A DNA stretch of 64,000 nt, from sequence record MH791409.1; one strand, written 5' to 3'. The stretch's first letter is position 1. Each line of letters starts with the position of its first letter. This DNA is from Escherichia phage EcWhh-1. The notes under the pieces were generated by a model. It was given only the letters and a program-made list of their open reading frames with translations, was not told where the DNA came from and searched no databases. Positions 23,558-25,824 of the stretch are shown here, piece after piece. The position numbers and the translations under genes are program-made.

Positions 23558-23565
23558 TATTTATA
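23558..23565 (-). promoter_or_regulatory. late promoter TATAAATA box
   Basis: Exact TATAAATA on minus strand ~30 nt upstream of 22912..23529 start. Confidence 0.5.
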
Positions 23566-23567
23566 CA

Positions 23568-23595
23568 AAAAGGCCCAACCTTTCGGAAGGGCCGT
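23568..23595 (-). terminator. hairpin terminator (copy 1 of repeated cassette)
   Basis: aaaaaGGCCCaacctttcggaaGGGCC; near-identical copy at 24190-24217. Confidence 0.5.
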
Positions 23596-23598
23596 AAA

Positions 23599-24153
23599 TC
23601 AGTTCTTGTAGAACCGGAACGGGTTCACGTGGAAGGCCAACATAGCTTTAGGGATTTTACGAGACAAAAGACTCTTAAGCTTCCAGCCACAGTACACGCG
23701 AAGGTAAAATGTGATTCCGCCGACCTTAAGATAAGGAACTGAAGCAAATACACCCCAGGCGTCATCATTCCACATCCACAACCAACCATGGTGAGCTTTA
23801 TCAGGAGAACCTGATTCTACGTCAGGATTACCACGATAATGGAATTCCGAGCTACAATCACGGCCTAGTTTATGATAAGCAAAGTTATAAGCTTTATTTC
23901 GCCATAGCCAAGCTACTCTCTGGAGATAAACACCACCAGGCATTTTCCTGATTTTAGCCCAACGTTTAATATGACCTTTATCGCCGTCAATTGGATTATC
24001 GTATGTCATCATCCAATCAAAACCGTATGGCAATTTACCAGTCTTTTTATTATGAAAAGGAACCACAAAAGGCGCAAGGATAACGGCTAGAACCATAGAG
24101 ATAAAATCTAGTGGGACCAACAGAATCCAACTCAAATATTTTAAAAGTTTCAT
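23599..24153 (-). CDS. membrane-anchored protein, 184 aa
   Basis: N-terminal transmembrane segment; Trp-rich. Confidence 0.55.
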   Translation of the reverse strand: MKLLKYLSWILLVPLDFISMVLAVILAPFVVPFHNKKTGKLPYGFDWMMTYDNPIDGDKGHIKRWAKIRKMPGGVYLQRVAWLWRNKAYNFAYHKLGRDCSSEFHYRGNPDVESGSPDKAHHGWLWMWNDDAWGVFASVPYLKVGGITFYLRVYCGWKLKSLLSRKIPKAMLAFHVNPFRFYKN

Positions 24154-24179
24154 ATTATTTCCTAAGTTAGTTTACTGTA

Positions 24180-24187
24180 TATTTATA
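24180..24187 (-). promoter_or_regulatory. late promoter TATAAATA box
   Basis: Exact TATAAATA on minus strand upstream of 23599..24153. Confidence 0.5.
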
Positions 24188-24189
24188 CA

Positions 24190-24217
24190 AAAAAGGCCCA
24201 ACCTTTCGGAAGGGCCT
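24190..24217 (-). terminator. hairpin terminator (copy 2 of repeated cassette)
   Basis: Same sequence as 23568-23595. Confidence 0.5.
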
Positions 24218-24224
24218 TTCACCT

Positions 24225-24445
24225 AGGGTAACCTTGTCGGGGTTCCACCTGCTAGGCAAGTGTTCGGTGCGCCGTTTCAGCTGTGAGATAAGGGACTTTA
24301 AGAGGAACTCATGTACGCCTTAAAGTCGGGTCTTATTCAGGGAACTTCAGTCCGACGACTTACCGGTAGCGACCCGGTTTCTTGTTTGTTGCGCCGGTGA
24401 ATGCTGGTAATCAGTCTTCATACGACGGCTTGACTATATAATAGT
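24225..24445 (-). ncRNA. candidate stable small RNA downstream of tRNA-Arg (analogous in position to T4 species 1/2 RNAs)
   Basis: ~220 bp GC-rich ORF-free tract in an AT-rich genome, co-oriented between tRNA and terminator. Confidence 0.3.
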
Positions 24446-24452
24446 CTTCATT

Positions 24453-24527
24453 TGGTATCCCGCCCTGGGATCGAACCAGGACCGCAAACTTAGAAGGATC
24501 GTATGCTATCCATTACACCAGCGGGAC
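24453..24527 (-). tRNA. tRNA-Arg (anticodon UCU)
   Basis: Hand-folded cloverleaf: acceptor GTCCCGC/GCGGGAT, T-arm CCTGG-TTCGATC-CCAGG, anticodon loop CTTCTAA, 3' CCA encoded. Confidence 0.75.
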
Positions 24528-25161
24528 GTAATTTATTTAAAAGACAAGACAAATCGGAAATCTCATCTTTTTCTAAAACTATCAAATTTTCTAAAGCTTT
24601 CCATTTACAAAGGTCTCTATCTCTTTTATATCCTTTGACTTCTATATAAAAATCATAAGTGGGTAAATAAAAATCAGGAAAATAGAGATGTTCTGAACCT
24701 TCCCATTCGTAAGGAATTGGCTTTATTTCATTAGTATATTTGATATTGTGTTCTTTTAAAAACTTAGCAACTTTTAATTCCCAGGTCCCTTTAAATTTAA
24801 ATCCGTCAAACTCGTATGTTTTTACTCGACCAGAAACATTAGAAGCAGAATATGAATCAGGATTATCAAGAACAGCTTGCCGCATTCTTTTAGAATGTGC
24901 TTCTTTGCGTTCATTAGACCATACATATCCTGTATTGGCTTTTCTAAGTTTTTCTCTGGTTTTATCAGAAACATTTATTTCTTTACCTAGTTCTTTGGCT
25001 TTTGTAAATTGATTGACGCCTTTAAGACCAAAACGAGGGTTATTAGGGCCGCTCATATCCAATCCATTTGGGTTAGATTTGCACCGTTTTTCATGTTGCT
25101 TTAGTGAATTTAAGTTTTTACATTCTTTAGAACAATATTGGCAAAGCATAATTTTCTCCAT
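24490..25161 (-). CDS. homing-endonuclease-like protein (N-terminal Cys-rich finger, NUMOD-like repeats, C-terminal PD-(D/E)xK-like motif)
   Basis: CQYCSKEC...HEKRC finger-like segment; PDFYLPTYDFYIEVK resembles PD...ExK; sits in tRNA cluster like T4 segB; 3' end overlaps tRNA-Arg. Confidence 0.5.
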   Translation of the reverse strand: MEKIMLCQYCSKECKNLNSLKQHEKRCKSNPNGLDMSGPNNPRFGLKGVNQFTKAKELGKEINVSDKTREKLRKANTGYVWSNERKEAHSKRMRQAVLDNPDSYSASNVSGRVKTYEFDGFKFKGTWELKVAKFLKEHNIKYTNEIKPIPYEWEGSEHLYFPDFYLPTYDFYIEVKGYKRDRDLCKWKALENLIVLEKDEISDLSCLLNKLRPAGVMDSIRSF

Positions 25162-25217
25162 GAATTTTATATAGATATTTATTCATGGAGAAGTTGACTG
25201 CTCTACCTAATCAAAGT

Positions 25218-25294
25218 TGGTGACCCAGACCAGATTTGAACTGGTAACCTTTCCCTTATGAGGGGACTGCTGCTAACCATTGAGCTACAGGGCC
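25218..25294 (-). tRNA. tRNA with CAU anticodon (Met or Ile2)
   Basis: Hand-folded: acceptor GGCCCTG, T-arm ACCAG-TTCAAAT-CTGGT, anticodon loop CTCATAA, CCA encoded; one acceptor mismatch. Confidence 0.65.
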
Positions 25295-25301
25295 TTAATT
25301 C

Positions 25302-25721
25302 TTAACTAGACCAATTCCAACCTTCGGAAGGGCCATCATAGTGTACACAAATATCAGGCGAAATATTAAAATTGGTACCATCCGAAGAAAAAACACCTAA
25401 CTTTTTACCAAACTCGCTGAAACAGAACTGTTCACCGCCTGGTGACCAAACATCTTCAAATAAAACAGTGAATAGCCATCCGGCAATTAAATCGGCATCA
25501 AATTCTGTTACGCCGGAACACATTTCATATAACTCGTCATCACAGACTGTAGCCACAATATGAGCTGAGTGTTCTTTAGATTTTAACCAAATACGGATTA
25601 AATTCCCGTCAAAACAATTATAGTTAATTTCAGATGGTTGGCAGTTATAAAATACTTCTGTAGCGATTTCTGGATTTTCCCAGGTTTCGCTGTTAAAATC
25701 GATAAGAATTGGAGTAATCAT
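25302..25721 (-). CDS. hypothetical protein, 139 aa
   Basis: ORF in operon. Confidence 0.5.
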   Translation of the reverse strand: MITPILIDFNSETWENPEIATEVFYNCQPSEINYNCFDGNLIRIWLKSKEHSAHIVATVCDDELYEMCSGVTEFDADLIAGWLFTVLFEDVWSPGGEQFCFSEFGKKLGVFSSDGTNFNISPDICVHYDGPSEGWNWSS

Positions 25722-25824
25722 ATTTTCCTCATTAGTTGATTAATTCTATTATGAAAGGCTCTTTGAGGGAAGAACCTTTGGTAATAGAGGGTATTAATGA
25801 TAGAGTAATAATATCACATAATTC

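Follow-up and report, generated by a model that had tools for sequence, protein, structure and literature searches.

The tRNA locus of Escherichia phage EcWhh-1 probably combines a tRNA/RNA D operon with a free-standing homing endonuclease that is specialized for tRNA(CAU) genes and lies in the spacer between two tRNA genes. We studied this locus, around positions 24,154 to 25,301, in a window of 64,000 nucleotides (nt) of phage DNA (sequence record MH791409.1). Judged from its sequence, the locus is a minus-strand operon for tRNAs and stable RNA in a T-even phage, a JS98-like Dhakavirus, and the surrounding gene order is T4-like: internal head proteins, trna.4, trna.3, trna.2, the tRNA cluster, and e.8. 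Among 568 phage records that match the locus, the closest are JS98, IME281, and IME341; JS98 and IME281 are 99.5–99.7% identical to the window over the shared parts, and identity to IME341 is 96% and extends over 71% of the query. With its tRNAs, RNA D orthologue, terminator, and selfish endonuclease, most of the locus is what one expects of a T-even phage. The tRNA(CAU) specialization of this homing endonuclease family appears to be undescribed so far: the literature that we searched contains no description of the family or of interrupted tRNA genes in these phages.

An earlier note on this DNA had proposed a reduced tRNA locus, in which two minus-strand tRNA genes flank an open reading frame (ORF). 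ARAGORN bears this out: it finds only two tRNAs in the 64 kb, as against three in the sibling phage JS98 and ten in the T4-type phage RB5, which also carries annotated rnaD and rnaC. Both cloverleaves score above the gathering score (29) of the Rfam tRNA model, RF00005. The central features, all on the minus strand, are the following.

24453–24527, minus strand: tRNA-Arg(UCU), called by ARAGORN and scoring 48.8 bits with the Rfam tRNA model.
24490–25149, minus strand: endonuclease coding sequence, 219 amino acids (aa) plus stop, with a CCHC zinc finger, NUMOD3-like helices, and a PD-(D/E)xK nuclease.
24530–25214, minus strand: insertion of 685 bp with the endonuclease gene, interrupting the 5-nt inter-tRNA spacer as ACT / insert / AC.
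25218–25294, minus strand: tRNA with anticodon CAU, called by ARAGORN and scoring 53.9 bits with the Rfam tRNA model.

The insertion has precise empty counterparts in close relatives. The tRNA(CAU) and tRNA-Arg genes are separated by ACTAT in phages fPSFA and UGJNEcP3 and by ACTAC in phage 005. In fPSFA, which lacks the endonuclease, both flanking tRNAs are 100% identical to those of the window; the same tRNA(CAU) is found in IME341, and the same tRNA-Arg, an allele other than that of JS98, T4, and RB5, in IME341, UGJNEcP3, F25, and 005. The ORF itself occurs at 95% identity or more in 4 of the 568 locus-matching records, namely two IME341 records, HEMP5, and F25. The last of these is a Tequatrovirus, in which the 849-bp cassette of tRNA(CAU), ORF, and tRNA-Arg is 96.9% identical to that of the window, and the flanks are 68–84% identical. 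Pairwise BLAST against JS98 delimits a larger exchanged block.

24389–25744, minus strand: segment diverging from JS98, with a 139-aa ORF, tRNA(CAU), the endonuclease, tRNA-Arg, and a 64-nt segment.

On either side of this block JS98 and the window are 97–99% identical, whereas within it they are entirely different: JS98 carries orf137 and T4-type alleles of tRNA(CAU) (annotated as tRNA-Met), tRNA-Asn, and tRNA-Arg. The presence/absence pattern, the cassette in F25, and the divergence from JS98 are comparative signs of a mobile gene that carries neighboring markers along. Several traits that typify a free-standing homing endonuclease gene of the T-even seg/mob type are found here: a gene that close relatives have or lack, with a precise empty site where it is missing, an intact nuclease domain joined to DNA-reading modules, and, as far as genome comparison can tell, transfer between genomes together with flanking markers. 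The free-standing endonuclease would cut the tRNA-gene DNA of phages that lack the element, which would then be copied by double-strand-break repair, dragging neighboring tRNA alleles along. We ascribe the difference between the tRNA set of the window and those of its near-identical siblings to the endonuclease locus.

Just upstream of the imported cassette, F25 has a tRNA-Thr pseudogene (locus L005, approximately 1800–1868) that, compared with RB5, is missing about 17 nt from the anticodon loop to the variable loop. The 139-aa ORF at 25302–25721, which replaces orf137 of JS98, matches PHROG 25544 (function not assigned) and has no Pfam match; it may be a fellow traveler of the tRNA-endonuclease cassette.

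The longest form of the endonuclease ORF (24490–25161, minus strand) has 223 codons. The likely product is 219 aa long and starts at the ATG at 25149, because relatives all start at the equivalent of MLCQYC, with invariant cysteines at residues 3 and 6, and a GGAG lies 6 nt upstream. The Cys-rich finger, NUMOD-like repeats, and PD...ExK motif that had been read from the letters of the 223-aa ORF are all present, and the E...PD...ExK core is conserved in relatives. A large protein database contains 466 relatives at E ≤ 1e-5. Over the 48 relatives used to score conservation, C3, C6, H19, E124, P158-D159, and E170-x-K172 are invariant, and C23, the fourth zinc-finger ligand, is conserved in at least 90%. 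The AlphaFold model of the protein is confident, with a pLDDT of 84. PHROG 15137, labeled ‘endonuclease’, matches at 1.5e-39, and a search of NCBIfam returned no informative name.

The nuclease homology that the earlier note had expected points to T7 endonuclease I (PDB 1m0d). This is the only solved structure matched by sequence (E=1e-5), with the catalytic Glu, Asp, and Glu-x-Lys residues aligned. The corresponding Pfam family, Phage_endo_I (PF05367), matches the window protein at E=2.7e-5, alongside weak zinc-finger matches; among the 48 relatives, PF05367 is matched by 32 and NUMOD3 by 9. Similarity to T7 endonuclease I, a match to PHROG 9019 (‘Holliday junction resolvase’, 3.6e-11), and records that annotate the ORF as ‘endonuclease I’ or ‘Holliday junction resolvase’ would fit a housekeeping junction-resolving enzyme, an analogue of T7 endonuclease I that serves recombination or packaging and is not mobile. 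We regard this as extremely improbable. The PF05367 alignment covers profile positions 14–72 of 149 and leaves the C-terminal half unmatched, and the window protein, unlike T7 endonuclease I, has N-terminal DNA-reading modules, a zinc finger and NUMOD3, that are typical of homing endonucleases. Furthermore, a housekeeping gene would not be expected to be missing from nearly all close relatives, leaving precise empty sites, or to recur in tRNA clusters across unrelated phage families as this mobile, tRNA-linked gene does.

Other known nucleases are also set apart by their catalytic cores. Neither Pfam nor PHROG matches of the endonuclease include a GIY-YIG family; with its PD-(D/E)xK core the protein is therefore not a homologue of T4 SegB. 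The invariant residues are E, PD, and ExK, and the family lacks the conserved nuclease-domain histidine of the EDxHD motif; it is thus not of the family of I-Bth0305I, an EDxHD (Vsr-like) enzyme that, in a further difference, is intron-encoded. By these sequence comparisons the endonuclease belongs to a distinct nuclease family that is tied to tRNA(CAU) genes in many phages. A distant relative of its nuclease domain, annotated as an endonuclease and 34% identical over residues 89–176, is found in phage HY03 (locus L014, 1279–1878) between two ORFs that are both named terminase large subunit; gene 17 of HY03 appears to be split by another mobile nuclease gene.

The tie to tRNA(CAU) emerges from 34 related loci, comprising 8 isolate lineages, 6 metagenome contigs, and 20 full-length IMG/VR relatives. 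In 32 of the 34, the relative lies inside a tRNA cluster, usually touching a tRNA(CAU) gene. This context is shared by all eight isolate lineages (Dhakavirus, Tequatrovirus, Karamvirus, Lazarusvirus, Angelvirus, Tulanevirus, Kuttervirus, and Kujavirus), which span two phage families, and by all six metagenome contigs. A same-strand tRNA lies within 400 nt in 18 of the 20 IMG/VR loci, and in half of these 20 a tRNA(CAU) overlaps the stop of the ORF or begins no more than about 35 nt past it.

The relatives fall into three arrangements. In arrangement A, found in at least six loci, the ORF lies within the anticodon loop of a tRNA whose two halves together form a clean cloverleaf. The intron mode of ARAGORN recovers inserts of 669 nt in CkP1, 666 nt in Apostate, 692 nt in PX29, 691 nt in AsFcp_4, and 671 nt in L022, and we recognized a further case, L021, by eye. 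The joined tRNA of CkP1 resembles E. coli tRNA-Ile2. In arrangement B, the ORF stands directly upstream of a complete tRNA(CAU) and ends within it, often at U8-A9-G10; examples are PhaxI, Kuja, L023, and L025, and L035, L038, and L039 likewise show a 10-nt overlap. Some of these loci have a 5' tRNA fragment upstream. In arrangement C, to which the window, F25, and IME341 belong, a complete tRNA(CAU) comes first, and a relic half separates it from the ORF behind it; L026 has the same layout with no recognized relic.

Some loci of arrangement A have features of their own. In the Aeromonas phages PX29 (L009, 1400–2164) and AsFcp_4 (L012, 1425–2188), the in-tRNA endonuclease ORF is a pseudogene with in-frame stops; the tRNA halves still make a perfect cloverleaf, whose anticodon is CAC or CAU depending on the choice of junction. 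The Acinetobacter phage Apostate carries, directly upstream of its interrupted tRNA(CAU), a complete tRNA with a CUA anticodon that is annotated as ‘tRNA-Pyl’ (L007, 1845–1919). At 68.6 bits with Rfam this is a separate, complete tRNA, which rules out an artifact of the interrupted gene; it could be an amber-suppressor tRNA.

Apparent traces of the in-tRNA arrangement are visible at both ends of the insertion in the window.

25191–25214, minus strand: relic of the 5' half of a tRNA, spanning the D-loop to approximately position 34 (TTGATTAGGTAGAGCAGTCAACTT), with which the insert starts.
24490–24527, minus strand: 38-nt overlap of the ORF and tRNA-Arg; the last 12 codons of the ORF and its stop are the 5' half of tRNA-Arg.

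In alignment, the relic TTGATTAGGTAGAGCAGTCAACTT matches the 5' halves of the tRNA(CAU) genes that are interrupted in CkP1, Apostate, and PX29, as well as the PhaxI fragment. Relics resembling GGTTAGAGCA-N5-CT precede the ORF in L025, L029, L031, L032, and L040, and a shorter 5' tRNA fragment does so in L023. At the other end, the insert closes with TTAAATAAATT, which resembles CTGAATAAC of CkP1; there ATAA marks the resumption of the tRNA, and the remnant of ATAA in the window is read in the CkP1 frame, as AAT AAx. Because of the relic and the CkP1-like insert end, we infer that the window copy derives from an ancestor of arrangement A, inside the anticodon loop of a tRNA(CAU).

The insert itself contains no stop codon for the ORF. 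The suspicion that the ORF stops inside the anticodon region of tRNA-Arg proved right: the TAA at 24492–24490 corresponds to U36-A37-A38 of the loop, whose anticodon TCT lies at 24494–24492. Because the TAG that CkP1 has two codons further on is lost, the ORF continues through 12 tRNA-Arg codons to the first in-frame stop. The ORF likewise ends in downstream tRNA sequence in most lineages: Apostate, L029, and L037 share the U36-A37-A38 stop of the window, and CkP1, L022, and L040 have theirs in the variable region. Two relatives, L024 and L026, have their own stop codon. The tail encoded by the tRNA is not conserved, as alignments with relatives extend no further than about residue 204–209 of the 223-aa ORF.

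If RNase P cuts at the 5' end of tRNA-Arg, the endonuclease mRNA would lose its stop codon. The overlap could accordingly be a regulatory coupling, in which RNase P removes the stop, the product of the resulting non-stop mRNA is tagged by tmRNA and degraded, the endonuclease is made from the unprocessed precursor alone, and translation into the tRNA delays its folding. The recurrence of ORF ends in the downstream tRNA across most lineages (at U36-A37-A38 or U8-A9-G10) is in line with such a device, as is the generally low expression at which phage homing endonucleases are kept (PMC2988022). However, descent from an in-tRNA element that never needed its own stop explains the pattern as well, and neither the independent stops of L024 and L026 nor the unconserved tail suits a selected function. 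We therefore hold coupling to be possible but rather unlikely. The overlap is most simply understood as a by-product of the element’s origin and relocation: in the ancestor the ORF would normally have ended in the 3' tRNA half, and after the move into a spacer it would run to the first in-frame stop of whatever tRNA comes next. The borrowed stop, the tRNA relic, and the unusual tRNA alleles would then all reflect the history of the element.

The in-tRNA copies raise the question of splicing. The element could be a true tRNA intron, now or until recently, with the copies of CkP1 and of the Acinetobacter and Aeromonas phages being spliced and the window copy being a moved intron. Clean cloverleaves around inserts of 666–692 nt in several lineages agree with this, as do the intact tRNA halves around the decayed ORFs of PX29 and AsFcp_4 and the insertion position, 34/35 to 36/37, which is the classic site of tRNA introns. 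The closest mechanistic precedent for a PD-(D/E)xK enzyme aimed at the anticodon region of a CAU tRNA is I-Ssp6803I, which resides in a tRNA-fMet intron (cited in PMC3424549). Like the relatives of the window ORF, I-Ssp6803I is associated with the anticodon loop of a CAU tRNA and belongs to the PD-(D/E)xK superfamily; it differs in being borne by a cyanobacterial group I intron and has no detectable sequence relation to the window protein. Rfam searches for group I and group II introns gave no hit, either in the window locus (E ≤ 10) or in five relatives (E ≤ 1). The non-coding part of an arrangement-A insert amounts to approximately 40–75 nt, since the ORF enters the 3' tRNA half, and wherever the junctions are placed, an exon-terminal U never coincides with an intron-terminal G, the ends expected of a group I intron. 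In the window, the insert lies between two tRNAs rather than within one, and no ribozyme core is detectable. Many lineages, the window among them, pair an intact tRNA(CAU) with the relic half, which suggests that interruption is costly and was repaired by duplication rather than tolerated by splicing. A tRNA intron is thus improbable.

A bolder version is about equally doubtful. It holds that the interrupted tRNAs of Citrobacter phage CkP1, Acinetobacter Lazarusvirus phages, Aeromonas Angelvirus phages, and metagenomic T4-like contigs represent ribozyme-free, protein-dependent phage tRNA introns, and that the borrowed stop of the window couples endonuclease synthesis to tRNA processing. If this were true, the interrupted tRNAs might be rejoined by the phage tRNA-repair kinase and ligase.

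For the endonuclease gene, the start region suggests how expression may be timed.

25140–25207, minus strand: two-tier hairpin that buries the Shine-Dalgarno sequence GGAG (25159–25156) and the AUG at 25149.

When 91 nt around the start are folded, the minimum free energy is -28.6 kcal/mol (z = -6.25), and none of 200 shuffled sequences folds as well. The outer stem is built from the tRNA relic, and the hairpin loop has at its edge AATAAATA, which resembles a T4 late promoter and has its first base at 25183. Equivalent hairpins precede the ORF in most relatives examined, including CkP1, Apostate, L021, L022, L023, and PX29. Those of T4-like relatives contain the motif (T/A/G)ATAAATA, that is TATAAATA, AATAAATA, or GATAAATA; PhaxI has the hairpin and no such motif. 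Read-through transcripts of the T4 genes e, soc, 49, and I-TevI are not translated; the active messages are late transcripts whose start lies within the hairpin (PMC3014915). The window shares with these genes a stable hairpin that buries the Shine-Dalgarno sequence and the AUG and that has a late-promoter-like motif inside; it differs in that the motif is AATAAATA, not TATAAATA, and in that the arrangement is known here from sequence. Owing to the position of AATAAATA at the loop, late transcripts would lack the inhibitory arm, and by analogy with the T4 genes expression of the endonuclease is probably late.

Of the two flanking tRNAs, tRNA(CAU) is labeled Met by the predictors. Its acceptor stem, GGCCCUG, is that of T4-type tRNA-Ile and includes C4-G69 and C5-G68, which we take to be determinants of tRNA-Ile2. 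In the E. coli genome it matches only genes with a CAT anticodon that RefSeq names tRNA-Ile, one of them at 73% identity. The T4 counterpart is named tRNA-Ile (PMC2988022). The tRNA is thus probably of the tRNA-Ile2 type, which carries lysidine and reads AUA, rather than a tRNA-Met. With tRNA(CAU) taken as Ile2 and tRNA-Arg(UCU) beside it, the reduced tRNA set would read AUA and AGA, codons that are rare in E. coli.

Downstream of tRNA-Arg the base composition changes: GC content is 0.48–0.52 over approximately 24175–24475, compared with approximately 0.27–0.37 within the ORF, and the only ORF in the GC-rich tract is 30 aa long with a TTG start. The idea that this tract could encode a stable RNA of the T4 kind is well founded, since 24263–24388 is 77% identical (E=7e-21) to rnaD (species II) of RB5 and has a fold backed by covariation. 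The tract is made up of three parts.

24389–24452, minus strand: 64-nt segment with two predicted hairpins, between tRNA-Arg and the RNA D orthologue.
24265–24385, minus strand: orthologue of T4 RNA D (species 2, rnaD), identified by homology to RB5 rnaD and by covariation.
24188–24264, minus strand: trailer of three small hairpins and an intrinsic terminator (hairpin 24195–24216, then a U-run).

The alignment with RB5 rnaD extends over 126 nt, and identity to JS98 in this region is 98%. We aligned 12 sequences from three genera, Dhakavirus, Mosigvirus, and Tequatrovirus. Their consensus structure comprises 23 pairs; 98.6% of the cells are paired, and compensatory changes occur at five of the pairs; the covariation score is reached by none of 500 shuffles, and slid controls pair at 31–49%. 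The ends of the RNA are invariant across the 12 sequences, and the central hairpin (24295–24345 in the window) exists as three unrelated alleles, each of which still forms a hairpin. These alleles cut across the three genera, which suggests exchange between them.

The first 35 nt of the trailer are invariant in all 12 phages, and the terminator stem covaries. In PhAPEC2 the homologous hairpin is annotated as a terminator. This predicted terminator marks the end of the tRNA/RNA operon; a simple terminator scan of the window did not call it, owing to mismatches inside the stem. RNA C is absent: a clean alignment gap of approximately 145 nt separates rnaD from the trailer in the window, JS98, and IME341, and UGJNEcP3 and RB5 have rnaC sequence there.

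Alternatively, the GC-rich tract could be a structured spacer with a terminator alone and give rise to no stable RNA. Rfam offers no family for the tract, either at the gathering threshold or at E ≤ 10; the one sub-threshold hit, BjrC68 (21.8 bits, gathering 39), merely reflects the terminator hairpins. Yet the homologous rnaD of T4 yields a discrete stable RNA (PMC9697503), and T4 does make both RNA C and RNA D, which accumulate late and have no known function (PMC3014915, PMC9697503). Together with invariant ends and covarying helices across three genera, this makes a mere spacer distinctly unlikely. As in T4, the RNA D orthologue of the window lies behind tRNA-Arg, with the same conserved trailer and terminator downstream; the window differs in the allele of the central hairpin, in the intervening 64-nt segment, and in the absence of RNA C.

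The 64-nt segment is 98–100% identical in IME341, UGJNEcP3, fPSFA, and 005 and absent from JS98, RB5, and F25; in Dhakavirus relatives it travels with the tRNA-Arg allele of the window. We considered a decayed copy of tRNA-Arg, tRNA-Asn, tRNA-Tyr, RNA D, or RNA C and rejected it, as local alignments score about as shuffled sequences do (z -1.0 to 1.7). In the Mosigvirus phages KMB38, PhAPEC2, and ST0 (L015–L017, 62–406), a 114-aa ORF similar to RB69 ORF150c stands between tRNA-Arg and RNA D and ends exactly at the 5' end of the RNA D orthologue, so the RNA D region is separable from the tRNAs by a protein gene.

A further repeated structure lies beyond the operon.

24180–24187, minus strand: T4 late-promoter consensus TATAAATA, directly after the terminator and upstream of the DUF7338 gene.
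23599–24153, minus strand: DUF7338 gene.

Identical 27-nt terminator hairpins, at 23567–23593 and 24190–24216, bracket the DUF7338 gene, and each is followed by TATAAATA (23558–23565 and 24180–24187, minus strand). The DUF7338 gene looks like a cassette flanked by repeated terminator-promoter modules.

Several observations weigh against our view of the locus as an operon invaded by a mobile endonuclease with a tRNA(CAU) past. The empty site of fPSFA, with flanks identical to those of the window, is equally explained by precise loss of the element. Four phage records carry the exact element, so its recent spread has been modest at most. The match to PF05367 (24.3 bits) falls below the Pfam gathering score of 29.1, and a Foldseek search of the model against the PDB returned nothing significant. 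The relic call depends on an alignment of 24 nt, AATAAATA matches the late promoter TATAAATA at seven of eight positions and is not the consensus, and the tRNA-Ile2 assignment is one of resemblance.

The closest functional analogue of the endonuclease is T4 SegB. The earlier note had placed the ORF in the position of segB, and this is correct: T4 segB lies between tRNA-Arg and tRNA-Ile (PMC2988022), and the window ORF lies between tRNA-Arg and tRNA(CAU). SegB recognizes a conserved tRNA-gene sequence and spreads itself together with neighboring tRNA genes (PMC2330249). Its homologues are strongly associated with tRNA genes across phages, and SegB amplifies tRNA genes, which helps phages to escape host defenses that cut tRNA (PMC13096335). 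Both enzymes are free-standing and sit between a tRNA with the anticodon CAU, tRNA-Ile in T4, and tRNA-Arg; however, SegB is a GIY-YIG enzyme, and the PD-(D/E)xK protein of the window has an unrelated fold. In addition, the family of the window protein is tied to tRNA(CAU), can occupy the anticodon loop, and usually has an ORF that ends in a tRNA. By analogy, the endonuclease would play the role that SegB has in T4.

Free-standing homing endonucleases shape gene inheritance of T-even phages in mixed infections, and the locus described here would add a second, unrelated nuclease family to the tRNA-Ile/tRNA-Arg niche of SegB. With ends that do not vary and a central hairpin that can be exchanged, the RNA D orthologue provides comparative material for the T4 RNA. 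For annotation, the relatives carry a warning: default tRNA predictors miss the interrupted tRNA genes, and the ORFs are labeled ‘endonuclease’ or ‘hypothetical’. The related loci form a natural series, in which the gene is found inside a tRNA, beside a repaired tRNA and a relic half, and between two tRNAs, and this series documents the remodeling of tRNA clusters by a selfish gene.

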